Below, in pieces: positions 21,904-36,176 of a stretch of 64,000 nt of DNA. How positions within the stretch are numbered: the first letter of the stretch is position 1; each line of letters opens with the position of its first letter. The stretch comes from Clostridia bacterium (GTDB taxonomy: Bacteria > Bacillota > Clostridia > Christensenellales > UBA1242), in contig JAZSRL010000009.1 of NCBI GenBank assembly GCA_045538455.1, positions 78,875-142,874 of the forward strand, given 5' to 3'. The notes beneath the pieces are model-generated. The model was not told the DNA's origin and searched no databases. It was given only the letters and a program-made list of their open reading frames with translations. The position numbers and the translations under genes were made by a program.

Positions 21904-22527
21904 ATGATGGCGCTATGGTGGTGCCGATTAATTGATTATTTACGCGTGCAATGGAAAACTTACCGCGCGACAATGTGTTGGTTGGCGGTATGTTTGGTTT
22001 TGGGTGCGGTACTGGGAATTGTGACTATTTGCATTGGTGATGTGGAAGTCGACAACATTAATTATCAATTAATTGACGGAAATATTTTGAATGCGACTGC
22101 GATTGGTGTGGGTATGGGAAGTTTTGTATGGCAACGCATTTTATCGTTGGCGGCACCGGTGCTGGTGGTGTTCGTTTTTGCGGCATTGTCGCGATGGACG
22201 GGGTGCGTGCTGTTTCCCATTGTTTTGATGCACGGATATTGGTTCAGTGTTGCGCTGTGGTGGGTGTTTTTTTATTACAGCTTTTCCGCCATATTGGTAA
22301 TTGTGTTTTATGCTGTGTGGCTGATGATGGTAACGGCAATTTTATTTGTTGGTTTGGTTTGGGCGTACCAGTGGGGTTGTCATTGTCGAATTTGTCGTGG
22401 AAAACGGGAATGGGGGTGCATTGTTCGCGGAGCGTGCTGTTTGATTGGTGTGGCAGTGGTGATGGGTTTTCTTGAATATCTGGTTTTTTGTACGGTTTTA
22501 GGAAAAATTGTGTATAAAGCGGTTTAA
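21904..22527 (+). CDS. hypothetical Trp/Cys-rich multi-pass membrane protein (possibly SpoIIM-like)
   Basis: 207 aa, about 5 TM helices. The SpoIIM suggestion rests on size, topology and context only. Confidence 0.4.
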   Translation: MMALWWCRLIDYLRVQWKTYRATMCWLAVCLVLGAVLGIVTICIGDVEVDNINYQLIDGNILNATAIGVGMGSFVWQRILSLAAPVLVVFVFAALSRWTGCVLFPIVLMHGYWFSVALWWVFFYYSFSAILVIVFYAVWLMMVTAILFVGLVWAYQWGCHCRICRGKREWGCIVRGACCLIGVAVVMGFLEYLVFCTVLGKIVYKAV

Positions 22528-23842: not shown

Positions 23843-23927
23843 GCGGCCGTGGCGGAATTGGCAGACGCACAGGACTAAGGATCCTGTATCGCGAGATGTG
23901 GAGGTTCAAGCCCTCTCGGCCGCACCA
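23843..23927 (+). tRNA. tRNA-Leu with anticodon AAG (A34), type II long variable arm
   Basis: Acceptor GCGGCCG/CGGCCGC, A73, encoded CCA, anticodon stem CAGGA/TCCTG, loop CUAAGGA (U33, A34 A35 G36, G37), T-arm GGAGG-TTCAAGC-CCTCT. Confidence 0.9.
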
Positions 23928-23965: not shown

Positions 23966-24331
23966 ATGTTTATAAAGAGTGCAGATTTAAAATCTTCTGA
24001 TTATTTAGAATTGCAATATATAAAAAACAATTTAATCTCTGATAAAGAACTATTAAAATTAAAGAGCATTGAACACTTTAAAGAAGATTCGATATTTGTT
24101 AAATCTGATGATATAGACAAGTTTGAAGATAATTATTCTGCTATTTTTGATAGACCTAAAAATCCTGACGGGAGCAACAAGTTTTATCCTTTTGGAATTA
24201 ATCTTTATACCACAGAACAATTAAAAGAAATCTATAATAAATTAAAACAAATTGAAGCAGATTCGGTGCTACTAAATTGGTTGAAATTCGCGGTGGAGAA
24301 AAAGTATAGAATCTATATACTGGGGGTGTAG
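23966..24331 (+). CDS. hypothetical protein
   Basis: 121 aa, AT-rich, normal RBS (AAAAGGGG), followed by a strong terminator. No family recognised. Confidence 0.55.
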   Translation: MFIKSADLKSSDYLELQYIKNNLISDKELLKLKSIEHFKEDSIFVKSDDIDKFEDNYSAIFDRPKNPDGSNKFYPFGINLYTTEQLKEIYNKLKQIEADSVLLNWLKFAVEKKYRIYILGV

Positions 24332-24376
24332 TTTTGATTTAAAAAGACTTTTTGTAGCATTGACAAAATGAATTTA

Positions 24377-24400
24377 AACAACCTGAAAGGTTGTTTTTTT
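24377..24400 (+). terminator. rho-independent terminator
   Basis: AACAACC-TGAAA-GGTTGTT followed by a T-run. Confidence 0.8.
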
Positions 24401-24447: not shown

Positions 24448-24477
24448 TTGATTTTTGGGATTTTGCTATTTTATAAT
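24448..24477 (+). promoter_or_regulatory. sigma-70-type promoter of paralog 1 (leaderless geometry)
   Basis: TTGATT-18-TATAAT. ATG 24485 begins 7 nt after the -10. No SD. Confidence 0.6.
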
Positions 24478-24484
24478 ATATGCG

Positions 24485-25387
24485 ATGAAAAAATTGAGTA
24501 AATTATTAAGTCGTCTTTCGAAAATGGGATTGACGCAAGAAGAAAGGGAAGTCTTTAAGACGCTTGACCTTTATGTTGAGGGATTTTTCCCACAAACTGT
24601 TTCTATCTTGACGCGTTTAGAAAAGTTGGGCAACAAGGATATGAAAAACCTCTTAGATATTCGTTTAAAAAAGGACGATGGTTTCAACTTGTTTAATATG
24701 TTTTTCCGTTCGCGTGATGACGCTTGGATGGCTCAATATTTAGCATATTATTATGAGCATAATCAATTTACAGATGGGCAATTTAAAGCTACGGAAGAAA
24801 AAAAAGCTCAACTGCCGTTAAATGCCGTAGAGAAGTATGTTAAATTTGCAACTAAATATAAAGCTTTGCGTGATGAGTTTGAACAAAATATAGTGCGTTC
24901 ATACATTAGTAATTGGGTAACCTATGTTCGTGAAGATGATTTTTACTGCAAAAGTGAACGCAAAAAAGACATGGTTCAATCCGAAAACTTTGACCACCTG
25001 TTCCGTCACAATGTTGTTTCGGCAATGCAGTTTTTGAATATTCCTGATGAAAATATTCAAGCAGGTCTTGAACGCTATAATAATTATTGGCGTGACACTG
25101 CGATGTTATTATCTTTTAAGAATCATTATAAAAAAATGTTTGGCAAAGAATATGATTTTGAAACCCAAAATTTTGATTTAAAAAATTATGAACACAAATG
25201 GATGATTGTTCGTAACAAGGAATATTATAACCTACACAAAGATGCAGTTAATAAATATGGAAAAGTAAATTTAGCCATGAAAATGCCGAAATCAAAAGTT
25301 GCCGAAATACATCGAGATGTTTTAGCTTATGAAGCTTATTTGAAATATGTACAGGAAGCAAAGGAAATCAATTACGAGAATTGTTAA
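24485..25387 (+). CDS. tandem-family paralog 1 of 9 (uncharacterised)
   Basis: 300 aa. Shares blocks RDDAWMAQY, YV-x5-Y-x2-LRDEFE, DDFY, FR-x6-AMQFL, YWRD, F-x-N-x-Y and WMIVRNKEYY with the next eight ORFs. Confidence 0.8.
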   Translation: MKKLSKLLSRLSKMGLTQEEREVFKTLDLYVEGFFPQTVSILTRLEKLGNKDMKNLLDIRLKKDDGFNLFNMFFRSRDDAWMAQYLAYYYEHNQFTDGQFKATEEKKAQLPLNAVEKYVKFATKYKALRDEFEQNIVRSYISNWVTYVREDDFYCKSERKKDMVQSENFDHLFRHNVVSAMQFLNIPDENIQAGLERYNNYWRDTAMLLSFKNHYKKMFGKEYDFETQNFDLKNYEHKWMIVRNKEYYNLHKDAVNKYGKVNLAMKMPKSKVAEIHRDVLAYEAYLKYVQEAKEINYENC

Positions 25388-25406
25388 GAAAAAATCGGTT
25401 TGAATA

Positions 25407-25435
25407 TTGAATTTTAAAGAGAGGAGATATATAAT
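25407..25435 (+). promoter_or_regulatory. promoter of paralog 2 (leaderless geometry)
   Basis: TTGAAT-17-TATAAT. ATG 25441 begins 5 nt after the -10. A GAGGAG lies 14 nt upstream inside the spacer. Confidence 0.55.
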
Positions 25436-25440
25436 ACATT

Positions 25441-26334
25441 ATGAAAAAATTAACTAAATTATCAGAAAACTTTTATCAAATGGGGTTGACTAAGGCTGAA
25501 AAAGCGGATTTCCAAGTTTTAGATACTTTTATGGAAAATTTCTTTCCCAAAATGGACGCTATTGAACAATGCTTAAAAACTTTTTGCGATAATGATATCA
25601 GAAAAGTTTTACAATTGCGCGTACAAAAGAACAAAGATTATAACATGGAAAGTATGATGGTGCAGTCGCAAAATGATAAATGGTTAGCAGATTATTTACA
25701 ATTTTATGTAATGAATAATTTTGTTACCGGTGTTTATCAAAATCCGCAAAGAAATTTTGCAAACAGCTTGACAACTAATGTTGTGAAAAAATATGTACAA
25801 ATCTCGCCTAAGTTTAAAGCAAAGCGCAGTGAATTTGAACAAGCTGTTGTTATGGCTTATATCCAAAATTGGACAGCGAATAACTGTGCTAATGATTTTT
25901 ATTGTAAGCAAGAACAAAAATGGGCAATGAGTTGTTCTGTTGATTTCGACAAGGGTTTCCGCAACAAAGTGAAGAATGCGATGCAATTTTTAAACATTAG
26001 AGATGAATCAATTGAAGCTGGAATCGAGCGCACAGCTCGTTATTGGCGCAAGGACGCTATGAAGTTGGCTTTTCAAAATAATTATAAGAAGACTTTCCGC
26101 AAAGAATATAATTTCAACACAACTGATGCAAAGGCAAAGAGCTATATGAATCAATGGTTGGCTTTGCGTGAACACGAATATTTTAATGAACATAAAGTTT
26201 CAGTTCAAAAATACGGGAGACCAACTAAATCAATGTTAATGAAAGATAAAACTGCGGCATTTATGCGTAAACAACTTGAAAGTTGGGAAGATTATCACGA
26301 AATGGAACTCCGTGGTGTTGAATGTATTTATTGA
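25441..26334 (+). CDS. tandem-family paralog 2 of 9
   Basis: 297 aa. Closest to paralog 1 (MKKLxKL...MGLT...FFP, NAMQFLNI, YWR). Confidence 0.8.
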   Translation: MKKLTKLSENFYQMGLTKAEKADFQVLDTFMENFFPKMDAIEQCLKTFCDNDIRKVLQLRVQKNKDYNMESMMVQSQNDKWLADYLQFYVMNNFVTGVYQNPQRNFANSLTTNVVKKYVQISPKFKAKRSEFEQAVVMAYIQNWTANNCANDFYCKQEQKWAMSCSVDFDKGFRNKVKNAMQFLNIRDESIEAGIERTARYWRKDAMKLAFQNNYKKTFRKEYNFNTTDAKAKSYMNQWLALREHEYFNEHKVSVQKYGRPTKSMLMKDKTAAFMRKQLESWEDYHEMELRGVECIY

Positions 26335-26381
26335 TTTGGTTGTGATGATGAGAAAACTAACGAAAATTGATTTTAAAAAAG

Positions 26382-26407
26382 TAACGGTGAAAATCGTTAT
26401 TTTTTTT
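26382..26407 (+). terminator. weak hairpin plus T8 between paralogs 2 and 3
   Basis: TAACG-N8-CGTTA followed by T8. Confidence 0.4.
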
Positions 26408-26414
26408 GTGTACC

Positions 26415-26444
26415 TTGACTTTGATAAAGTTGAAACGCTATAAT
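26415..26444 (+). promoter_or_regulatory. promoter of paralog 3 (leaderless geometry)
   Basis: TTGACT-18-TATAAT. ATG 26451 begins 6 nt after the -10. Confidence 0.65.
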
Positions 26445-26450
26445 GGGCAA

Positions 26451-27404
26451 ATGAAGTTTAAAAAATTGAAACAGAAGTTCGAAGATATAATGATTAAAGA
26501 TCAAAAAATGCTTACTGATTTCAAGTTTTTAGATCGGTATGTCAGTAGTGTTTTCCCGACGAAAGCAGAGGTCGAAGGGTTGATGTATCATAAAAATTTA
26601 ACTGATAGAAATATGCGTGTTCTTTTGCATGCACGCTCGTTGCCTTTTCACACGCGCGAAGACGAATGGCTGGCTTTGTATTTAGAACAAGCAGTAGCAC
26701 AAATCTTTTTGACTGAACGCGAAGAAGAAAGTAAACGGAGTACTTGTGAGGCTTATGAGCCGATTTTATCGATTGATCAACGAAGCTTTTTACAATATGT
26801 TAAATTATCACCTAAGTTCGAAGCGATGCGTACGCGTTATGAGCATTATTTAGTAAAAGATTATGTTGACAACTGGGTCAAAGGTCAAAGTTATGATTTC
26901 TATTACACAGAAGAAGAGAAGAAAAAGTTTGTGCAAAAAACAAATTATGAAGATGTTTTCCGCGAAAGTGTGATTGATGCGATGGTTGCTTTGGGATTAC
27001 CACAAAAAAGTATTGAAGAAGGATTAGAACTTAGTGCGTCGATTTGGTTGATGCCGGCAATTTGTCGTGGCTTAATGAACGAAAGTGGATTACATTCAGA
27101 TGAGTTTTGTGCTTTACAAAAATATGAACCGGCTGTGGCCAAAGAGTTGTTCAATTCTGAATTTAAAAGTATGGCAGCAGCTGCTCGGTTGCGGGAATAT
27201 AAATATTATTTAAAACATCGTGAAGTGATTGATCGAATGGGTACGGCAACAAAAAACATGAAAATGTCACAGGAGGAAGCGTCGAAATTAGAACAAGTAG
27301 TACGAAGCAATGCCTATAAAAGTGAATGTGTTATGTTTAATCAAATTGCTTGTTCTTTATATGCAAAGGAATTTACCACGGGCTTAGGAAGAAATGGCCT
27401 ATGA
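26451..27404 (+). CDS. tandem-family paralog 3 of 9
   Basis: 317 aa. LPFHTREDEWLALY, YVKLSPKFEAMRTRYE, NYEDVFRESVIDAMVALGL, LREYKYY, TATKNMKM. The WR/F-x-N-x-Y block is degenerate. Confidence 0.8.
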   Translation: MKFKKLKQKFEDIMIKDQKMLTDFKFLDRYVSSVFPTKAEVEGLMYHKNLTDRNMRVLLHARSLPFHTREDEWLALYLEQAVAQIFLTEREEESKRSTCEAYEPILSIDQRSFLQYVKLSPKFEAMRTRYEHYLVKDYVDNWVKGQSYDFYYTEEEKKKFVQKTNYEDVFRESVIDAMVALGLPQKSIEEGLELSASIWLMPAICRGLMNESGLHSDEFCALQKYEPAVAKELFNSEFKSMAAAARLREYKYYLKHREVIDRMGTATKNMKMSQEEASKLEQVVRSNAYKSECVMFNQIACSLYAKEFTTGLGRNGL

Positions 27405-27437
27405 TTTGTGTTGCTCATGAAAATTTCTTTATTAATC

Positions 27438-27467
27438 TTGACTTAGTGGTTTAACAACAATTATAAT
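27438..27467 (+). promoter_or_regulatory. promoter of paralog 4 (leaderless geometry)
   Basis: TTGACT-18-TATAAT. ATG 27474 begins 6 nt after the -10. Confidence 0.65.
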
Positions 27468-27473
27468 AGAAAC

Positions 27474-28418
27474 ATGAATAACATTCCTGATATTGCAGGA
27501 TATTTAAGGGATAAGTATGCTTACTTAAATCTCTCGGATGAGGAATTAAACGCCTTTATCATTATGGACGGGAATCTTGACATATTATTGCCGTCGATTA
27601 GTGATGTAAAGCATCATGTGTTAGCTATTGAAGATATCAAAGCGCGCCGAAAGGAAATCAATACAATTCGTGAATTTCGTGTTCAAGATTTTCCGTTACA
27701 ACTACATGATTCTGAATGGATTAATCAGTACATTATGGAGCGACTAAATTTTTGGGGTCGTGAGATAAAAGGCGATGTTGCCATCAGTCACAAAACGCTG
27801 GGAAATTATTTGGCTCGTTCGAGAGATTTTTGGAAAAAACGCGATGAGTACATTAAAGAAGTTTTGCAAACTTGTTTAAAAACATGTTTGCGTTATAATC
27901 CGGAAAGTAAGTTTTTTGGCGCAATCAAAGAGTATCAATATAACAGTATCAATTATGATAAAGATTTTCGTGCGCATTTCATAAAAGTAGGTGAGTCGTT
28001 GGGGTTATCAGGGTTGGAAGTTGCAAAATTTTTAGAAGACAATGCTAAATCTTGGCGAACAGAAGTACAGATGCATACATTTTCGAATAATTACACAAAG
28101 TACAAACCAAGGGGTTGGGTGAAACATAAACAGCGTCCACCTGAAATGGAAGAAATTGATCAAATTGAAGATAAGCTATATAAAAAATGGATGATGTTGC
28201 GTGAATTTGAATATGAGCGTGAAAACTGGATTCTTTTTAATCGGTTAGGTATAAAACCTAAAATGCAGTTAAAGGATGAAGAAGTTGAAAAATTAAGACA
28301 AGAAGTTGCGTCCCTAGAACACGAGTTCCGTGTGCGAGTCAATTTATATGAGAACTGGGAAAGGCAACCAGAGTTGTTCGGAGTGGAAGATTTAGAACAA
28401 CCAAGTTATGAAAAGTAA
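27474..28418 (+). CDS. tandem-family paralog 4 of 9 (most divergent)
   Basis: 314 aa. Keeps HDSEWINQY, NYDKDFR, SWR, FSNNY and WMMLREFEY but lacks the SPKF and DDFY blocks. Confidence 0.75.
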   Translation: MNNIPDIAGYLRDKYAYLNLSDEELNAFIIMDGNLDILLPSISDVKHHVLAIEDIKARRKEINTIREFRVQDFPLQLHDSEWINQYIMERLNFWGREIKGDVAISHKTLGNYLARSRDFWKKRDEYIKEVLQTCLKTCLRYNPESKFFGAIKEYQYNSINYDKDFRAHFIKVGESLGLSGLEVAKFLEDNAKSWRTEVQMHTFSNNYTKYKPRGWVKHKQRPPEMEEIDQIEDKLYKKWMMLREFEYERENWILFNRLGIKPKMQLKDEEVEKLRQEVASLEHEFRVRVNLYENWERQPELFGVEDLEQPSYEK

Positions 28419-28423
28419 TGGGA

Positions 28424-28429
28424 TATAAT
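28424..28429 (+). promoter_or_regulatory. -10 box of paralog 5 (no convincing -35)
   Basis: TATAAT, with ATG 28435 beginning 5 nt after it. Only 5 nt separate the paralog 4 stop from this box. Confidence 0.4.
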
Positions 28430-28434
28430 TGGTG

Positions 28435-29355
28435 ATGAAACTGAAACAGTTTGTGATGAATTTACAAGTTGGACAAAAATTTGATGCCCAATTTTTAGAT
28501 CGTCACTTAATAGAAATTTTCCCAGATCTTGCTTTTGTTGAAAAAAATATCAAAATGTTGCAGTCGGTTAAAAAAGCGGATGTTTTAAGCGCGGATAAGC
28601 GGATTACATCAGAAGACTTTTTACCCTATTTTGTGCGCGATGATGATTGGTTGGAAGTTTATCTTGGCAGCAAGTTTAAGATACAAAATTTATCATATGA
28701 GACTATTCGTAAATACATTGCTTATTCACCAAAATTTGCAGCGGCTCGTGACCAGTATGAAGAAAACATTGTGCGTTGTTATTTAAATGAATACAAAAAT
28801 TTTAAAAGTGATGATTTTTATGCGGACATGGAAACTAAATATTTTTTGCGTAACAGCATTAATTATGACAAAGTTTTCCGTCATGAAGTGAAATCCGCGA
28901 TGAATAAATTAGGGCTATCTGCAAAAAGCATTGAGTATGCGTTGGAAAAAAATGCGGCATTGTGGCGTGATGAGGTCATGACCGTGGCTTTTTTAAATCG
29001 TTATCCAGATTGTGGGATACGGGATTATGTGCGTCATGGTTATCGCTTTGAAGATGGTTTGATTGAGGAACAAGATAGTAAACCAAATTTTTATGCGGAG
29101 CGTGCATGGTGTCTTTTGCCTTTATCAAAATTATCGGAACAGCAAAAATCTTTATATAATATTTGGAAGTCTTTGCGTGAATTTGAGTATTATCAAGAAA
29201 ACAAAAAAACGGTTGATAAGTTAGGTCTAGCGACACCAAATATGAAAATGAACTTAAAAGAGGCGATATCATTATATTCTAAACTTCAAGCGTTAGAATA
29301 TATCTGTGGGTACAGAAGAAATTATTACAGAAAAGATGAAACTAAAACATTTTAA
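28435..29355 (+). CDS. tandem-family paralog 5 of 9
   Basis: 306 aa. RDDDWLEVY, YIAYSPKFAAARDQYE, DDFY, NYDKVFRHEVKSAMNKLGL, LWRD, LREFEYY, LATPNMKM. Confidence 0.8.
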   Translation: MKLKQFVMNLQVGQKFDAQFLDRHLIEIFPDLAFVEKNIKMLQSVKKADVLSADKRITSEDFLPYFVRDDDWLEVYLGSKFKIQNLSYETIRKYIAYSPKFAAARDQYEENIVRCYLNEYKNFKSDDFYADMETKYFLRNSINYDKVFRHEVKSAMNKLGLSAKSIEYALEKNAALWRDEVMTVAFLNRYPDCGIRDYVRHGYRFEDGLIEEQDSKPNFYAERAWCLLPLSKLSEQQKSLYNIWKSLREFEYYQENKKTVDKLGLATPNMKMNLKEAISLYSKLQALEYICGYRRNYYRKDETKTF

Positions 29356-29368
29356 TTTTGTGTGAATA

Positions 29369-29397
29369 TTGACTTTTGATTTTGGATTGTCTATAAT
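29369..29397 (+). promoter_or_regulatory. promoter of paralog 6 (leaderless geometry)
   Basis: TTGACT-17-TATAAT. ATGATG follows at 29400/29403, and the second ATG begins 5 nt after the -10. Confidence 0.65.
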
Positions 29398-29402
29398 GCA
29401 TG

Positions 29403-30335
29403 ATGCAAATAAAACAGAAGTTAAAAAACAGTTTTAATCATATTCATTTAAAGCTAAATGAAAAAAAATATTTAACAGAATTAGATAAACATTTTGGAGA
29501 TTTTTTCCCAGCAAAGAATTTCGTGATGCAAAATTTAAGTAATTTATCAATGCAAGATCGTAAGTATAAATTTGTTTATAATGTAATTCATTTACCATTC
29601 CACACGCGTGATGTTGAATGGTTGACTAACTACATTATGGACAAAATTCAAAAAACACCGCGGTTATCGGTATTAAGTGATATTCCTTACAATACTTTAA
29701 AACGATATGTAGAAACCTCGTCAAATTTTATTGCGCGCCGTAATCAATATGAAAAAGATTTAGTTTGTGGTTATATCAATAACTGGTTGCATGAATGTTG
29801 TGATGATTATTACTTAAAAGCGGAACAAAAACAAAAATATGAAAAAAAGCGTAACTTTGATGAAGTCTTCCGTGAAAAAGTTGTTAATGCGATTAGTTTA
29901 TTAGGTATCGACAGTTCAATTGTAAATCTTTATTTGGAAGAGAGTGCGCATATGTGGCGTAAGTGTGTGATGCAAAAGACTTTTATGAATCGTTTGCAAA
30001 ATAGTTCGTATTTTAAACAATTTGCGCTGAACGATGACCAACGCATATTATTGTCAAAAAATAATCCGCAGGCTTGGGAAAAATTTGTAAATAAAGAATT
30101 TGATTTTATGAATCTTTGGCTGGCTGTTCGGGAAGTTAAATACTATCAACAAAATAAAAGAGTTGTGGATAAAGCAGGTACCATTACTCCCGCAATGCAG
30201 TTGATTGATTATAAAGTCTATCGTTTAAGAGATGAAAAGAGTTCAATGCGTTTTGAATATATTAAATTATTGAAAGAGGCCGCACAATTAGTTCAAGAAA
30301 TTGAATCACAAAATTACGGGAAAAGTAATATTTAA
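29403..30335 (+). CDS. tandem-family paralog 6 of 9
   Basis: 310 aa. LPFHTRDVEWLTNY, YVETSSNFIARRNQYE, DDYY, NFDEVFR, MWRK, VREVKYY. Confidence 0.8.
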   Translation: MQIKQKLKNSFNHIHLKLNEKKYLTELDKHFGDFFPAKNFVMQNLSNLSMQDRKYKFVYNVIHLPFHTRDVEWLTNYIMDKIQKTPRLSVLSDIPYNTLKRYVETSSNFIARRNQYEKDLVCGYINNWLHECCDDYYLKAEQKQKYEKKRNFDEVFREKVVNAISLLGIDSSIVNLYLEESAHMWRKCVMQKTFMNRLQNSSYFKQFALNDDQRILLSKNNPQAWEKFVNKEFDFMNLWLAVREVKYYQQNKRVVDKAGTITPAMQLIDYKVYRLRDEKSSMRFEYIKLLKEAAQLVQEIESQNYGKSNI

Positions 30336-30363
30336 TTGCCTGAATAAATTTAGGTAGTCTTGT

Positions 30364-30392
30364 TTGACAGAAAAGTTGCGCTCATATATACT
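30364..30392 (+). promoter_or_regulatory. promoter of paralog 7 (leaderless geometry)
   Basis: TTGACA-17-TATACT. ATG 30399 begins 6 nt after the -10. Confidence 0.6.
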
Positions 30393-30398
30393 GCCGCT

Positions 30399-31337
30399 AT
30401 GAAATTGAGTTATACGCAAGATAAGCAATTTCCCCAAACCCATTTAAAGTTCAATGTTTTGTTAGATGAATGCCTAAGAACACTTTTCCCGAATGAAGAG
30501 TACATATTAGATAATCTAAAAAACATCACACGAAAAGATAAATCATATACATTATCCTATAACAAGGGGTATTTAGCTTACCATACCTGTGATACCAATT
30601 GGTTAGCAAAATATTTAGAAATGGCGTATAATCACTTGCAAAGTTTGAAAACAACGCGTTTAAATCCACAAGAACAAACAGCCTTAACAAAAAAAATTCC
30701 ATTTAGTTATATTCGTAATTATGTTGAAACTTCACCAAAGTTTGACGCATTGCGTTCTCAGTATGAACAAAAATTAGTCGGTGCCTATATTCAATTAACC
30801 CAAGATAATAAGAAAGATGATTTTTTTGCCAAGAGTATCGTGAAAATTGCTGATGCTCAGCACCCACAGTATGAGCGTCTTTTGCGTGACCGTTTTGTCG
30901 CGGCGATGCAGCATTTGGGTATGGATAAATTTCGTGCGGAAATAGGAATTGAATTAAATGCGCATTTATGGCGTGATAATGCACGCTTTCAGACTTTCTT
31001 AAATAATTTTCGAAAATATGATATGCGAAATTTGACCGGAAGCAAAGGTTTAATGGCGCGTCATAATACGCCTGTATGGGTTAAGTTAGTTAACATGGGT
31101 GAACAATTATATGAAAAATGGTCGCAGTTAGCTGAATATGATTATTATCAACAACATAGAAGGATTATTGATCAATTAGGTACAGCTAATTCACATATGT
31201 TAATTTCAGAAGATAAAGCGGCGAAATTAGAAAAAGAAGTTGAATCAATGCAATTTACTTTTGAATGTATGTTGTTTGATGCCACACAAAAAATAGAACA
31301 AATAACAAATAAAACCCAAAATGGTATCGAAAAATGA
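30399..31337 (+). CDS. tandem-family paralog 7 of 9
   Basis: 312 aa. CDTNWLAKY, YVETSPKFDALRSQYE, DDFF, LWRD, FLNNF, LAEYDYY. Confidence 0.8.
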   Translation: MKLSYTQDKQFPQTHLKFNVLLDECLRTLFPNEEYILDNLKNITRKDKSYTLSYNKGYLAYHTCDTNWLAKYLEMAYNHLQSLKTTRLNPQEQTALTKKIPFSYIRNYVETSPKFDALRSQYEQKLVGAYIQLTQDNKKDDFFAKSIVKIADAQHPQYERLLRDRFVAAMQHLGMDKFRAEIGIELNAHLWRDNARFQTFLNNFRKYDMRNLTGSKGLMARHNTPVWVKLVNMGEQLYEKWSQLAEYDYYQQHRRIIDQLGTANSHMLISEDKAAKLEKEVESMQFTFECMLFDATQKIEQITNKTQNGIEK

Positions 31338-31356
31338 TAAAGAAATTTAGTGTATA

Positions 31357-31386
31357 TTGACATGGTAGTATGCGTAAAGTTATAAT
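31357..31386 (+). promoter_or_regulatory. promoter of paralog 8 (leaderless geometry)
   Basis: TTGACA-18-TATAAT. ATG 31392 begins 5 nt after the -10. Confidence 0.65.
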
Positions 31387-31391
31387 TGCAT

Positions 31392-32396
31392 ATGAAATTA
31401 AAACATTTTATTATCAAAAATTTGAACCAGACCCAATCAATGGATGAAACCTTAGAACAAAAGCTAACCGCTTTGTTACCTAAAATTTTTCCAGCAGATG
31501 ATTTAAAAAAATTAAAAATGGTTGATAAGATGGACAACCAAATATACACTGCCCAGTATTTACCATTCCATACGCGTGATAATGTGTGGTTAGCAAATTA
31601 TATTGCTAAGTTAGTACATGATTTGCAAGTAAAACCTAGCCGCGATGGAAAAAAATCGTCTTATCGTATGTTGGGCGTAGTCGGTCTTGCTGATGTGATG
31701 CAGTTTATGAAAAATTCGGTTGAATTCACTCAGGCGCGTGATTGTTATGAACAGAATTTAGTTGCGAGTTATATCCCGTTGTTAAGTGATAATACACGCG
31801 ATGATTTCTTTACGGTTGCGGAAGAAAAACGAGCTATTTTAAGTCATAAACACTGTTCAACTTTATTCCGATATCGTATCACAGAAGCAATGCGTTTTTT
31901 AGGTTTACCAGAAGATGTTATTGAGTTGGGAATTGAAAAGAATCGTTCAAAATGGTATGCACGGATGCAAAAACATACTTTTGCGAATTTGTATGAGCAT
32001 GTACCGATGCTGGAACAAAATAGTCAGTATATTTATTCCTATTTACGCAAAGAATTACTTGCATTGGAAAAAGCGAGAGATGAGTTTCAGGTAAACTGGG
32101 AAAAATTAGAAGCTTTAAAATATTATAAAGCACATAAAGCGGCAATTGATAAAGTGGGTGGTGGAGCTTCGTATATGAAAATATCCAAAGGTCAAGCTGT
32201 AAATTTAATGAAAAAAACGAATGCGACTTTCTTGGAGTACAAGCGCTTACTTTTGAATATAATTGGGCAAATTAAACCAGACGATGAAGAAAGTGTTAAC
32301 AGGTACCATGTGAATGGCAAAAACGCGCAAATTAAACTTGCAAATTGTGTTGCCAAAAAGCATGTGCGTGACGCTAATTTAGAACGCGAAAAGTAA
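31392..32396 (+). CDS. tandem-family paralog 8 of 9
   Basis: 334 aa. LPFHTRDNVWLANY, DDFF, LFRYRITEAMRFLGL, FANLY, LEALKYY. Confidence 0.8.
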   Translation: MKLKHFIIKNLNQTQSMDETLEQKLTALLPKIFPADDLKKLKMVDKMDNQIYTAQYLPFHTRDNVWLANYIAKLVHDLQVKPSRDGKKSSYRMLGVVGLADVMQFMKNSVEFTQARDCYEQNLVASYIPLLSDNTRDDFFTVAEEKRAILSHKHCSTLFRYRITEAMRFLGLPEDVIELGIEKNRSKWYARMQKHTFANLYEHVPMLEQNSQYIYSYLRKELLALEKARDEFQVNWEKLEALKYYKAHKAAIDKVGGGASYMKISKGQAVNLMKKTNATFLEYKRLLLNIIGQIKPDDEESVNRYHVNGKNAQIKLANCVAKKHVRDANLEREK

Positions 32397-32433
32397 GAAC
32401 AGTAAAAATTGTGTAACTTTTTTTGTGGTAATA

Positions 32434-32463
32434 TTGACTTTGGGTTGTTTGATTTCTTATAAT
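32434..32463 (+). promoter_or_regulatory. promoter of paralog 9 (leaderless geometry)
   Basis: TTGACT-18-TATAAT. ATG 32469 begins 5 nt after the -10. Confidence 0.65.
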
Positions 32464-32468
32464 TGAAT

Positions 32469-33731
32469 ATGGAAAAATTGAGTCAATTACAAGAAGAAAA
32501 ATTCTCTGTAAATAGTTTAGTTTTAAATAAGGAAGACCAAAATATTTTAGATAGTTATTTGTCATCATTTTTTGCAAGCGAAAAGAATGTTCAACAAGCA
32601 TTAGTTCATTTGAACCGTTTTGAAAGAGATGTGTTGGACAAATATGATGTGAAACATTTGCCGTTTCATACGCGTGATAATAAATGGCTAGTGCAATATA
32701 TTTTGGCTTGCTTAAATGAAGTGCGTTGTATGCAATTTAATGAAAAGGAAAAAGACCCAACTGTGCAGGTTTTGAAATATATAACTCCACAAACGATTGT
32801 GTCATACATTACACAGTCGCCTAATTTTAAGGCACAACGCGCAGAATATGAAGAAAATGTTGTAAAGGCATACATAAAGATTTTAAAAGATGCTAAAATT
32901 GATGATTTTCAAGTGCATGATTATGAGAAACGAATATATCGTAACAAACCGGACTATGATAAAATTTTCCGCATCAAAATTGTAAAAGCAATGCGTTTCT
33001 TGTGTTTTAACGCACGCTCTTACGAACCAGCGATAGAAAAGAACGCAGATTTGTGGCGTGACCAAGTGCGTAGGCAGACTTTTGCCAATATATACCATTT
33101 AAATAAATATCTAGATGAAGAAACTGTAAAAAAGTTGAAATTCTTTGCACCGCGTATGTTCGCTGAAATTAATAATTTATTGGAAGACATTTATCAAACT
33201 TGGGCAGCTGCGCGTGATTATGTTTATTACTGCGAAAACCAAGAAACAATCGATAAATTAAATTTAGCAACACCGAATATGAAAATGTCAGAAGTTGAAT
33301 ACAGAAAAATGAACCGCAAAGTAATGGTGAAAATTGCTCAATACAAAGAAATGGTTGCGAAAGCCAAAAGAAGTGTTTATGGCAAAGCATTGATAAAAGC
33401 AAAAGAGAATTATTGGAATACACATCAACCAGTTTCAAATGGTTTTGACATTGTGGAAATTGATGAAGAAAAGTTAAAATATTGGGACAATCATCAACCA
33501 GTAACCAACGGTCATGATGAAGTTATTGTGGACGAAAAAAAATTACGCTATTGGGATTTTAATCAACCGTTAACCAATGATGGAAAAAATATTCCAGCAA
33601 AAGAAATTAACTATGATTATTGGGATCATCATCAACCACAAACAAGCGACGGTAAACCAGTTTTCAAAAAAAATTACAAGAATCTTAAATATTGGGACCA
33701 ACATCAACCAAATACTTATTTAAGTAAATAA
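32469..33731 (+). CDS. tandem-family paralog 9 of 9 with C-terminal YWDxHQP repeat extension
   Basis: 420 aa. LPFHTRDNKWLVQY, YITQSPNFKAQRAEYE, DDF, IFRIKIVKAMRFL, LWRD, FANIY, LATPNMKM, then five YW(D/N)xxQP repeats. Confidence 0.8.
   Translation: MEKLSQLQEEKFSVNSLVLNKEDQNILDSYLSSFFASEKNVQQALVHLNRFERDVLDKYDVKHLPFHTRDNKWLVQYILACLNEVRCMQFNEKEKDPTVQVLKYITPQTIVSYITQSPNFKAQRAEYEENVVKAYIKILKDAKIDDFQVHDYEKRIYRNKPDYDKIFRIKIVKAMRFLCFNARSYEPAIEKNADLWRDQVRRQTFANIYHLNKYLDEETVKKLKFFAPRMFAEINNLLEDIYQTWAAARDYVYYCENQETIDKLNLATPNMKMSEVEYRKMNRKVMVKIAQYKEMVAKAKRSVYGKALIKAKENYWNTHQPVSNGFDIVEIDEEKLKYWDNHQPVTNGHDEVIVDEKKLRYWDFNQPLTNDGKNIPAKEINYDYWDHHQPQTSDGKPVFKKNYKNLKYWDQHQPNTYLSK
33408..33728 (+). repeat. five in-frame ~20-24-aa repeats (YW[DN]-x-[HN]QP-x-[TS]-x-G) at the C-terminus of paralog 9
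   Basis: NYWNTHQPVSNG, KYWDNHQPVTNG, RYWDFNQPLTNDG, DYWDHHQPQTSDG, KYWDQHQPNTY. The DNA repeats TATTGGGA...CATCAACCA. Confidence 0.8.
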
Positions 33732-33761
33732 CATTATTTTGTTTAGTGCTTGCAACAAAAA

Positions 33762-33791
33762 AAGAACCCTAACAATTAGAGTTCTTTTTTT
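33762..33791. terminator. bidirectional terminator between the array and potCD
   Basis: AAGAAC...GTTCTT hairpin flanked by an A-run and a T-run. Confidence 0.7.
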
Positions 33792-33809: not shown

Positions 33810-36176
33810 TTATTCATTTTGGGGCAGTGCTATGGTCGTTGGGGCGAAGCGCGGGCGGCGATGTGTTAAGGCGTAAACCAACCACCAAATGAATGCAGCA
33901 ATCGCGAGTAACAAGATGATTATCAAGAAAATGTTTACGCTGCCGTCGTCTTCGGTTAATTGTGCAGCTTTATTTTGAACTTCAACCATCAAATTAGTTA
34001 CGGCTTTTTCTTTTGCTTTGTCGAAGTTTTTCATGACAGCAGCAAAAGTTAAGTTATCTGCGTTTGGGAAGACGGTACAAGCGTAATTAATATCGGGGTT
34101 GAAGATACCTTCTTCATTGTCAGGGATATTGTTTTTTAAATTTTCTGGGACATAGTAGTCGCCGTATTCGATAACTGGGTCGCCATTTTCGTCAAAGATT
34201 TGGTTGCCATCTTCGTCAACTGCATATTCCCAACCCGTCATGTCATCGATAGCTTCACCAGCGGCAACCATTTGGCTACCAACATAGTCGATGTTTGCTG
34301 CTGCGTTTTCGGCGTCTAACATAAAGTTAATGAATTCGTAAGCTGCGTCCAGATTTTTCGCGTAAGTTGGAATAGCAAAGTTATCGGTCCATAAGTTAGT
34401 TCCATTTGGCGCGTAGTAGCGGAGTGGGTTAACATAGTCTTCGTCTTCGGCATTTGCTTCCATTAATTCGTACATCGCTAAGCCGGCATCACAACTCCAG
34501 AATAAACCGTAAGCAAAATCATTATTGTTGGGGTCTACGAAAGATTTTTTACCGTTATCGTTTTCGTAGGTCGGATCCATCGTGGTAATTTGTTCTAACA
34601 GTACCTTGCGCGCGTCATCAATGCTGTAGTCGCCGGTCATGTTGATGATGTCTTGCAATAAACTGTTATCATAGTTTCCAGCATCGTCAAATTGGTCATC
34701 GTTCATATAAACAGCATCATCAATTAATCCGGTGTCATTATTTTCTTTTTGAGCGCTGTAAATCATAGCAATGGCAATCGAGTCACGCGCTGATTTTTTC
34801 ATGGTGATACGGCCTTCAAACTTGTCAGTACCACCTTCACCAAAGAGAACACCAAAACCGTATTGCGTAAGTTTTTCTTCAAACATTTCCACAGAAATAT
34901 GAGTGGTTGCTTCAAGTGAGTCAATAACACGGGTATCATACATAATACCCAAAGTACCAATCATATAAGGAATTGCCCAAGCTTGTTCGGCAACGGGATT
35001 GTTGTTTGCGTCGTAAACGGTGGTAAATGGTTTGGTACGGTCCATGATAGCGGCGTCAAGTTCATCTGTGACGCGGGTCATATCAATGGTTCGGAGTAAA
35101 CCATCTTGTGCCATTTTTTCGACCATGTATTCTGATGGGAAAATTAAATCGTAATCGGCGCGTTGAGTGTTAATTTTGCTGTACAATTCTTCGTTATCGG
35201 CAAAAGTGTGGTATTCGATACGGAATTTATTGGCATTTTTAACTCCGTCTGCTGCTAATTTCTCGCGGTAGTATTCGGTAAAATCATCCAATAATTCGGT
35301 TTCGATATAGTCTTCCCAGTTATAAACTTTTAAGACCATTTCGCGTGGTGTTAAATTGGAAGCAATGACCGGAACAACTCCGGCACCGGTTAATAATAGG
35401 ATGCCCGCTAAAATGCCGGCGACAACTTTTTTATTTAATTTTATGCCTTTGCGGACGCGAGCGGCATTGAAGTTCATCACAACCAAGACCAATAAAATCA
35501 CAACAAAGATAATTGTGGTTAAGGCTTTGAACGCGTCGGGGATATCGCGACGGCTGATGGCTCCGTAAATTACGGTCGAAATGGTTGGAACACCGCTGTT
35601 GTTATATTGTGTGATAACAAAGTCGTCCAAAGACAAGGTGAAGCCTAACAAGAAAGCTTGAATCATGGCTGGGACTAATTGTGGCACAATGACACTGGTA
35701 AAAGCTTTGAATGGGGAAGCGCCCAAATCCAAAGCTGCATCAATTAAGTTCGCATCAAGTTGGCGCATTTTAGGTAAAATGGTTAACAAGCAGAAAGGTA
35801 AGGCAATTAAGATGTGCGCTAATAACAATTTTAACAAGCCGAAGTTAGTTAAGCCCAAGCTAACAAATAATAACACTAAACTAAATGAAGTAACGATATC
35901 GGCGTTAATAACCGGTAATTGGTTCACCGCCATGGTAACAGCACGGGTGCGTTTGCCTAAATACAAAATTCCAGTCGCAGCCATGGAAGCAATAATTGTC
36001 GCAATCAACGAAGCGACCACGGCAATTAACAAAGTATTACCGATAGCGGTCATATATTCTGATGTTGTAAACAATTCAACATAGAATTCTAACCCGTTAC
36101 TAAATGATAAGTAGATGAGTAAAAGAATTGGTAAATAAACAATTGCCGCTACGGCTAAGATTAATGTCATTCCCAT
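33810..36176 (-). CDS. potCD: fused spermidine/putrescine ABC permease PotC and substrate-binding PotD-like domain, with C-terminal TM anchor
   Basis: N-terminal ~260 aa form a 6-TM permease with the DAALDLGASPFKAF EAA loop. Then comes a TM segment, then LKVYNWEDYIE and a PotD-like periplasmic domain, then the final TM NIFLIIILLLAIAAFIWWLVYAL. Confidence 0.8.
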   Translation of the reverse strand: MGMTLILAVAAIVYLPILLLIYLSFSNGLEFYVELFTTSEYMTAIGNTLLIAVVASLIATIIASMAATGILYLGKRTRAVTMAVNQLPVINADIVTSFSLVLLFVSLGLTNFGLLKLLLAHILIALPFCLLTILPKMRQLDANLIDAALDLGASPFKAFTSVIVPQLVPAMIQAFLLGFTLSLDDFVITQYNNSGVPTISTVIYGAISRRDIPDAFKALTTIIFVVILLVLVVMNFNAARVRKGIKLNKKVVAGILAGILLLTGAGVVPVIASNLTPREMVLKVYNWEDYIETELLDDFTEYYREKLAADGVKNANKFRIEYHTFADNEELYSKINTQRADYDLIFPSEYMVEKMAQDGLLRTIDMTRVTDELDAAIMDRTKPFTTVYDANNNPVAEQAWAIPYMIGTLGIMYDTRVIDSLEATTHISVEMFEEKLTQYGFGVLFGEGGTDKFEGRITMKKSARDSIAIAMIYSAQKENNDTGLIDDAVYMNDDQFDDAGNYDNSLLQDIINMTGDYSIDDARKVLLEQITTMDPTYENDNGKKSFVDPNNNDFAYGLFWSCDAGLAMYELMEANAEDEDYVNPLRYYAPNGTNLWTDNFAIPTYAKNLDAAYEFINFMLDAENAAANIDYVGSQMVAAGEAIDDMTGWEYAVDEDGNQIFDENGDPVIEYGDYYVPENLKNNIPDNEEGIFNPDINYACTVFPNADNLTFAAVMKNFDKAKEKAVTNLMVEVQNKAAQLTEDDGSVNIFLIIILLLAIAAFIWWLVYALTHRRPRFAPTTIALPQNE

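Follow-up and report, generated by a model that had tools for sequence, protein, structure and literature searches.

Nine tandem paralogs of an undescribed, predicted all-helical protein family with leaderless-type promoters in uncultured Clostridia

The gene array and its protein family

The window analyzed here is a 64-kb stretch of contig JAZSRL010000009.1 (GCA_045538455.1) from a Clostridia bacterium, and our subject is an array of nine consecutive plus-strand open reading frames (ORFs) that it contains at positions 24485-33731 (Table 1). An earlier inspection of the same DNA, the sequence-only reading, had described these genes as homologous but strongly diverged members of an unrecognised protein family. 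Indeed, all nine ORFs were present in our ORF listing with the ATG starts and the stops that it had given. Upstream TTG starts are sometimes possible, but the positions of the promoters and the conservation of the N termini favor the ATG codons. The intergenic spacers between paralogs 1 to 9 are 53, 116, 69, 16, 47, 63, 54, and 72 nt long, and the range of 10 to 66 nt given before must therefore be corrected to 16 to 116 nt. A MAFFT alignment of the nine proteins was collinear from end to end, with 12 invariant columns and 19 to 41% identity to paralog 1, and every motif block that had been listed was visible in it. The best identities between paralogs in BLASTP were 27 to 42%; as had been noted, paralogs 1 and 2 group together, with 42% identity, and paralog 4 has diverged furthest. 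Each paralog matched the hidden Markov model (HMM) of the family, which was built including these nine, with E values of 1e-58 to 1e-86.

None of the nine proteins has a transmembrane segment or a signal peptide (maximum 19-residue hydropathy, 1.5). They are 10 to 15% aromatic, and seven of the nine have an isoelectric point (pI) of 8.7 to 9.35, paralogs 3 and 4 being neutral or acidic. The block is richer in AT than its neighbors, as had been judged by eye, with a GC content of 0.31 to 0.35 versus 0.40 to 0.44 in the flanks and 0.30 versus 0.39 at third codon positions.

When the nine paralogs were compared with Pfam, none reached the curated threshold, and NCBIfam, PHROGs, and PADLOC gave scattered single weak matches only, none of which was common to the paralogs. 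An extended set of 149 family members likewise shared no Pfam family. Moreover, sequence-profile searches of the PDB with three alignments, including the 149-sequence alignment A2, and with the N-terminal add-on domain described below gave no match. With the nine-sequence profile as query, HMMER was run exhaustively over 1.84 billion representative proteins and returned 346 of them at E values of ≤1e-3, 288 at ≤1e-10, and 105 at ≤1e-30, and since only these 346 representatives were found among 1.84 billion proteins, the family is real but small. A word-indexed protein search with the family profile gave 3 clusters only. In all sources searched, the members are named only "hypothetical protein," and the literature on leaderless genes and tandem paralogs in Clostridia contained nothing that describes this family or array.

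An AlphaFold2 model of paralog 6, calculated from alignment A2, had a predicted local distance difference test score (pLDDT) of 95.7 and a predicted template modeling score (pTM) of 0.89. It consists of 17 helices without any strand, two of which, at residues 2 to 28 and 269 to 308, are long terminal helices. With this model, the best Foldseek match in the PDB had an E value of 1.4 (template modeling score of at most 0.23) and the best match in BFVD had an E value of 1.0; comparison of its halves and thirds with hhalign gave no internal repeat. A second model, of the distant member P0101 with its N-terminal extension (pLDDT 86), had the same helical core together with a small five-stranded beta domain. 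The core again had no PDB neighbor in Foldseek, and the beta add-on gave only nonsignificant Tudor/PWWP/PilZ-like hints (E values of 2.8 to 5). As modeled, the array encodes an undescribed cytoplasmic all-alpha family, the predicted fold of which is without a relative among the solved structures. The description as unrecognised has thus stood up to both the profile and the structure searches, neither of which gave a confident match to a known family, and the absence of membrane segments and the all-helical character were seen again in hydropathy and model. The novelty suggested by these sequences and models lies at the level of protein family and fold, as the libraries searched contained no relative; functional novelty is not thereby implied.

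Some members carry additional segments. P0101, P0151, P0018, and others (loci L018, L023, and L031; distant low-GC genomes) have an extra N-terminal domain of about 90 amino acids (aa) with the sequence MKKYNxYDLxVIK, which was modeled as a small five-stranded beta barrel and is duplicated in P0018. P0094 and P0126 share another accessory segment, and neither this segment nor the N-terminal domain had a database match. P0018 (680 aa) is a natural fusion of two complete family cores, found as a single case on one short contig. In the window, paralog 9 ends in a tail of repeats with a 23-residue period. Orthologs of paralog 9 and five more representatives of the family have kept the tail, mostly on the gene that closes an array. 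The tail was found on no other kind of protein, and a word-indexed protein search with the tail returned only an ortholog fragment.

Promoters and start codons

The sequence-only reading had spoken of individually promoted genes, and this was strongly borne out. A promoter scan revealed a near-consensus sigma-70-type promoter upstream of eight of the nine array genes. TATAAT or TATACT ends 5 to 7 nt before the ATG in every case, and in eight of them a -35 box with at least 4/6 matches stands at a spacing of 17 or 18 nt. The first T of the -10 box is located at -11 to -13 in 9/9 genes, and no Shine-Dalgarno sequence fits ahead of any of the nine ATG codons. A -10 box with its first T about 12 nt upstream of the start codon, combined with the lack of a Shine-Dalgarno sequence, is accepted as the computational mark of bacterial leaderless genes (PMC3160421). 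By this geometry, each array gene appears to be a leaderless transcription unit of its own. The alternative of a pseudo-operon served by one promoter was rejected, since consensus promoters stand before the individual genes.

With 0.01 expected, the window has six occurrences of the strict pattern TTGAC-N18/19-TATAAT-N5-7-ATG, five of them at family starts. The layout is present in 9/9 array genes versus about 5 of the 55 other genes of the window (Fisher p = 7e-8). Seven arrays whose proteins are about 30% identical and whose spacer sequences differ have the layout at 26 of their 38 family genes, and this argues for selection on the layout and not for inheritance by duplication. Furthermore, the array promoters are closer to the consensus than those of tRNA-Leu or of the trigger factor gene. 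Clear terminator-like hairpins follow only the tRNA unit, paralog 2, and paralog 9; the one behind paralog 8 is weaker.

Outside the array, the same layout without a Shine-Dalgarno sequence precedes the genes for CvpA (12422, minus strand), ParB (12990, plus strand), TsaE (38887, plus strand), and trigger factor (55852, plus strand), and many other genes have AGGAG. Because the layout is found at these four genes too, the organism seems to use leaderless initiation routinely, side by side with Shine-Dalgarno-led initiation. The unusual point is a tandem array in which all members have the leaderless layout.

Table 1. Features of the array locus, in window coordinates (protein lengths are from the ATG starts; distances are from the end of the -10 box to the ATG)
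Feature	Position	Strand	Remarks
tRNA-Leu(aag)	23843..23927	+	ARAGORN and Rfam; conserved upstream boundary of array locus
Terminator-like hairpin and T-run	24376..24399	+	Ends tRNA-Leu/121-aa-ORF unit; in L001 directly after tRNA
Paralog 1 promoter, TTGATT-18-TATAAT	24448..24477	+	7 nt; kept in L001, L009, L013
Paralog 1	24485..25387	+	300 aa; dN/dS 0.10-0.13 versus its orthologs
Paralog 2 promoter, TTGAAT-17-TATAAT	25407..25435	+	5 nt
Paralog 2	25441..26334	+	297 aa; subgroup with paralog 1
Hairpin and T8 after paralog 2	26375..26407	+	Likely intrinsic terminator (RNAfold)
Paralog 3 promoter, TTGACT-18-TATAAT	26415..26444	+	6 nt; identical in L001
Paralog 3	26451..27404	+	317 aa; gene-turnover position in sister genomes
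Paralog 4 promoter, TTGACT-18-TATAAT	27438..27467	+	6 nt
Paralog 4	27474..28418	+	314 aa; most divergent copy
Paralog 5 -10 box, TATAAT	28424..28429	+	5 nt; spacer 16 nt, upstream part inside paralog 4 end
Paralog 5	28435..29355	+	306 aa
Paralog 6 promoter, TTGACT-17-TATAAT	29369..29397	+	5 nt
Paralog 6	29403..30335	+	310 aa; copy modeled by AlphaFold2
Paralog 7 promoter, TTGACA-17-TATACT	30364..30392	+	6 nt
Paralog 7	30399..31337	+	312 aa; most widely traceable orthologs
Paralog 8 promoter, TTGACA-18-TATAAT	31357..31386	+	5 nt; 12/12 matches
Paralog 8	31392..32396	+	334 aa
Paralog 9 promoter, TTGACT-18-TATAAT	32434..32463	+	5 nt
Paralog 9	32469..33731	+	420 aa; family core and C-terminal repeat tail
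YW[DN]xHQP repeats, five	33411..33710	+	Tail of paralog 9
Strong bidirectional terminator hairpin	33757..33791	.	Paralog 9/convergent pot operon; array end (RNAfold)

Selection, gene turnover, and the conserved locus

Related loci, numbered with an L in the following, were located with a narrower family alignment (A3). The window genes have collinear 1:1 orthologs in L001 (88 to 98% identity), L009 (76 to 96%), and L013 (49 to 67%). The ratio of nonsynonymous to synonymous substitution rates (dN/dS; Nei-Gojobori) was 0.09 to 0.37 for every copy, versus 0.06 to 0.13 for dac, the membrane protein gene, and pot. Pooled pN/pS in sliding windows of 15 columns was 0.10 to 0.37 everywhere (four genomes, with low power at the level of single sites). 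The first ten codons had a value of 0.13, and this constraint supports the ATG codons as the real starts. Frames were intact in 9/9 genes in the window and L001 and in 8/9 in L009. The nine genes are anciently diverged, individually maintained paralogs, all of which are under purifying selection.

In a neighbor-joining tree, positional orthology is partly deep (W6~C5~K6~F5~J7, W7~C6~K7~F6, and W3~F2~J4~K1), and the H array and J1-3 are lineage-specific expansions. The view that this is an old, maintained repertoire and not a recent amplification is thus confirmed by the collinear orthologs in sister genomes, by positional orthology that is partly kept at about 30% identity, and by purifying selection. 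Widespread decay in sister strains, which would have spoken for dying duplicates, was not seen; turnover was restricted to position 3. At this position, L009 (5018-5572) and its relatives have a 185-aa nonorthologous family gene, and L013 lacks paralog 3. In the window (26345-26407) and in L001, the first dozen or so codons of the 185-aa gene remain, followed by the terminator and the promoter of paralog 3. Versus L009, the synonymous rate (dS) is a mosaic, with 0.39 to 0.66 for paralogs 1 to 5, 0.08 to 0.16 for paralogs 6 and 7, 0.25 to 0.31 for paralogs 8 and 9, and 0.11 for dac, which suggests recombination or allele exchange inside the array.

The gene order shared by the related genomes is gltX, sua5, murB, an unknown gene, SpoIVB (minus strand), a 207-aa membrane protein gene, dac, tRNA-Leu, the array, and the pot operon (minus strand). 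In the window, the array accordingly follows an S11 D-Ala-D-Ala carboxypeptidase gene (dac), the 207-aa membrane protein gene, and a divergent SpoIVB peptidase gene, and it faces a convergent pot-type ABC transporter operon. The tRNA-Leu gene lies 557 nt before the ATG of paralog 1, and there is no adjacent integrase or transposase gene, so the surroundings are as first described. The gene for tRNA-Leu(aag) separates dac from the first of the family genes also in loci whose proteins share only about 30% identity; it has this place in L001, L009, L015, L016, and L017. The array is thus an ancient resident locus and not an island. It is chromosomal and vertically inherited and is carried by neither phage nor plasmid. 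The hint of a tRNA-adjacent island in the sequence-only reading does not agree with this order. No integrase gene was found nearby, and every related genome that was sampled has the array in this position; the comparison with islands did not extend to direct repeats of the tRNA 3' end. Furthermore, no relative of the family was found in 50,697 phage records, 72,556 plasmids, or IMG/VR contigs. Members came only from metagenomes and metagenome-assembled genomes labeled "Clostridia bacterium," for instance, from the caecum of water buffalo and water deer, and all traceable ones belong to uncultured, mostly ruminant-gut Clostridia.

The number of family copies differs between the loci. L001 has nine, and L008 to L012 have nine with the 185-aa nonorthologous gene at position 3. 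L007/L013 have eight and, on the upstream side, a Type ISP restriction gene instead of the usual neighbors; L029 also has eight. L027 has 4 + 3 copies split by an unrelated 639-aa gene, L016 has six or seven, one of them frameshifted, and L017 has a single copy. A separate lineage (L024; GC content of 49%) has its own seven-gene array, and in low-GC (26%) Clostridia, the family is present as single copies, which have ordinary Shine-Dalgarno leaders and unrelated surroundings.

Several neighboring genes were also recorded. The 207-aa multipass membrane protein (window 21904-22527, plus strand) has no Pfam match and is strictly kept between SpoIVB and dac in L001, L008, L015, L016, L017, L027, and L029. 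A 788-aa pot-type fusion of a permease (BPD_transp_1) and a solute-binding domain (SBP_bac_1) at 33810-36176 (minus strand) is kept in all related loci. A 121-aa AT-rich ORF without a family match (23966-24331, plus strand) lies within an insertion, about 440 bp long, that separates tRNA-Leu from its terminator hairpin; the insertion is present in the window and L009 and is cleanly absent from L001, the flanks of which are otherwise 98% identical. Beside the tRNA, only this ORF varies in presence between the genomes. In L007 (560-3157, minus strand; GCA_045538225.1), a Type ISP restriction-modification gene (Eco57I/Type_ISP_C) and a 133-aa ORF are found where others have dac and tRNA-Leu. The gene that splits the array 4 + 3 in one species (L027, 14252-16171, plus strand; L014, 6920-8869, plus strand) encodes 639 to 649 aa and is Shine-Dalgarno led; it was rejected as a family member, as it has no similarity to the family, and it has no Pfam match. 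L017 (CAZXAV010000051.1), a 6.7-kb contig labeled "uncultured Prevotella sp.," has the Clostridia-type order of 207-aa protein, dac, tRNA-Leu(aag), and family gene and is probably misbinned. A large M60-like (enhancin) peptidase with an F5/8 type C domain adjoins family genes in L017 (3116-6646, minus strand) and L024 (11744-15013, plus strand). Since it is absent from the other loci, these two being unrelated, it was treated as a coincidence among host-associated bacteria and not as a partner.

Possible functions and comparison with known systems

Over the 149 members, the charged residues H67, D70, R113, E117, D153, R157, E175, E179, R186, N196, R243, H251, and D256 (paralog 6 numbering) are 74 to 97% conserved, and the aromatic residues W73, W185, W239, Y247, and Y248 are conserved as well. 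Because this set exceeds the needs of a hydrophobic core, it suggests a shared binding or catalytic site. Tentatively, and with somewhat less than even confidence, we favor the view that the array encodes nine specialized isoforms of one cytoplasmic biochemical activity, each expressed independently and probably strongly; the descriptive part of this account is the more certain one. Each gene would be its own unit, in which a near-consensus sigma-A-type promoter directs transcription to start at or next to the A of the ATG and thereby gives a leaderless mRNA. Read-through transcripts would translate the downstream copies poorly, because the downstream genes are without Shine-Dalgarno sequences, and these copies would be translated mainly from their own 5'-terminal AUGs, so that the output of each copy would be set by its own promoter. 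The common site would bind, or catalyze a reaction on, one kind of chemical group, and the divergent remainder of each paralog would provide nine nonredundant specificities. A role in the spore coat or in sporulation, to which the neighbors SpoIVB, dac, GerE, GerM, and SspI in two genomic contexts could point, was rejected as the leading view, since the promoters have the sigma-A consensus and are not of the sigma-E/K/F/G type.

A number of points weigh against nine independently expressed isoforms of one activity. R157 and E179 are the only polar residues conserved in more than 90% of the members, paralogs 1, 2, 4, and 5 lack H67, and the conserved residues could form structural salt bridges and not a functional site. 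Divergence in the family is much faster than in the neighboring genes (versus L013, the orthologs are 50 to 65% identical and pot is 91% identical), and such a rate together with a mosaic dS is unusual for a core metabolic enzyme. A comparison of the neighbors of family loci gave no recurrent partner gene as functional context; distant single-copy members, for example, lie next to NUDIX and HTH-CYTH genes, to GerE, GerM, and SspI, or to STAS and SpoIIE-kinase genes. As for expression, paralog 5 has no recognizable -35 box, and most array genes are separated by weak terminators only (RNAfold), so that read-through transcripts are likely. The leaderless start and the high expression are both read from sequence geometry alone.

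The rival explanations rank, in order of decreasing probability, as a hetero-oligomeric assembly, an immunity repertoire and nucleic acid-binding regulators (these two with equal figures), and decaying or island genes. The paralogs could be abundant subunits of a hetero-oligomeric or self-assembling cytoplasmic structure for which the tail of paralog 9 serves as a docking scaffold. We consider this unlikely, although promoters nearer to the consensus than those of tRNA-Leu or trigger factor suggest high expression of all copies, gene order and 1:1 orthologs are conserved, and the model of paralog 6 has long terminal helices. The repeat tail, moreover, is confined to the last array gene in the window (W), L013, and L029, and the two-core fusion P0018 hints that copies may interact. 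A fixed assembly is difficult to reconcile with copy numbers of 1 to 9 among genomes, with single copies in the distant species, with the loss or replacement of position 3, and with the expansions of the H array and J1-3; and the fusion is only one, on a single short contig. More improbable still is an immunity or anti-phage repertoire in which each paralog neutralizes or senses a different toxin or phage protein, akin to the immunity, defense, or sensor families with which the sequence-only reading had compared the array. Birth and death of copies at deeper timescales, fast amino acid divergence compared with the flanks, a dS mosaic that suggests allele exchange, truncated or frameshifted copies in some strains, the AT-rich block, and the Type ISP restriction enzyme directly upstream in one genome would all fit. 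But PADLOC gave a single weak match (E value of 0.0078) for one of the nine members, and no link to a toxin, to a type VII secretion system (T7SS) or LXG protein, or to a phage, plasmid, or viral contig was found. These results lend the analogy no support, nor does it agree with a housekeeping locus that is fixed across the clade, with uniform purifying selection (dN/dS of 0.09 to 0.37, with no window above 0.37), or with the many conserved charged residues, which are atypical for immunity proteins.

The same low probability is given to basic helical regulators that bind nucleic acids, each paralog controlling different targets. The basic pI of seven of the nine proteins and four conserved arginines would be in line with this, as would the five-stranded beta domain of some distant members with its weak Tudor/PWWP/PilZ-like similarity, and leaderless mRNAs are classically found for regulators. 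However, Pfam and Foldseek revealed no domain that binds DNA or RNA, such as a helix-turn-helix (HTH), two of the nine proteins (paralogs 3 and 4) are neutral or acidic, the Tudor-like matches are not significant, and near-consensus promoters are unexpected for regulators. Finally, the genes might be decaying duplicates, or selfish or functionless genes of a horizontally acquired island next to a tRNA gene. An AT-rich block beside a tRNA and one position that is replaced or truncated in sister strains are what such an origin would leave behind, but it is largely refuted by the intact frames, by dN/dS values well below 1 for every copy, by conserved promoters, by occupation of the same locus where copies are only about 30% identical, and by the lack of an integrase, transposase, or repeat boundary, and we regard it as highly improbable.

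Going beyond the favored view of nine isoforms of one activity, the array may represent a new fold with an undescribed cytoplasmic function in gut Clostridia. This would be either an all-alpha class of enzymes or ligand-binding proteins with nine specificities or a multisubunit assembly, with each array member on an independent, strongly promoted leaderless mRNA and with read-through silent for the downstream copies. This full combination is possible but, in our judgment, doubtful. If fold and function were new, the family would add a structural class that is absent from the PDB and would give a handle on the biology of an uncultured clade of ruminant-gut Clostridia that devotes about 9 kb, with apparently very strong promoters, to it. 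Independent of function, nine consensus promoters abutting nine AUGs without a Shine-Dalgarno sequence make the array a natural test case for leaderless expression in Clostridia. It could show how tandem genes are expressed independently without terminators or ribosome-binding sites, and its promoters, TTGAC(T/A)-17/18-TATAAT-N5-6-ATG, could be used as compact parts for gene expression in Clostridia.

Tandem arrays of immunity genes are carried by T7SS loci of Firmicutes, for example, the DUF600/EsaG copies beside EssD in Staphylococcus aureus. Like these, the array consists of same-strand genes for small or medium-sized cytoplasmic paralogs without signal peptides, with a copy number that varies between strains and with signs of recombination between copies. 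The likeness is one of descriptions, which were not compared by homology, and there is no similarity in sequence or fold. Unlike the T7SS arrays, the array has no adjacent toxin or secretion genes. A linkage to LXG, Rhs, or nuclease genes was not found, the neighbors in all arrays of the clade being SpoIVB, the membrane protein, dac, tRNA-Leu, and pot. The array proteins are also about twice as long as T7SS immunity proteins and have many conserved charged residues, and their genes are fixed between dac and pot and have their own leaderless-type promoters instead of being cotranscribed with a toxin gene. A second resemblance is to the RRNPP receptors (Rap, Rgg, PlcR, NprR, and PrgX), which are likewise all-helical cytoplasmic proteins of about 300 aa and of which a genome has many diverged paralogs that differ in specificity. 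In contrast to these, the array proteins have neither tetratricopeptide repeats nor an HTH domain (Pfam and Foldseek) nor internal repeats, and no small peptide gene follows any array copy, the 16- to 116-nt spacers being filled by promoters. RRNPP paralogs are dispersed around the genome, whereas the family described here is collected in one array.

The closest parallel in gene layout is to the known leaderless genes, with which the array shares a -10 box whose first T is about 11 to 13 nt upstream of the start, the lack of a Shine-Dalgarno sequence, and AUG starts. Leaderless architecture has been described for Deinococcus-Thermus, Actinobacteria, and some Lactobacillales (PMC3160421, PMC4007540, and PMC12340547), and in a survey from 2011, the leaderless genes of Firmicutes were concentrated in Lactobacillales and Mycoplasma, with Clostridia not mentioned (PMC3160421). 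The array differs from these cases in that it belongs to an uncultured lineage of Clostridia, in that all nine genes of a tandem array have the layout, and in its near-perfect -35 boxes.

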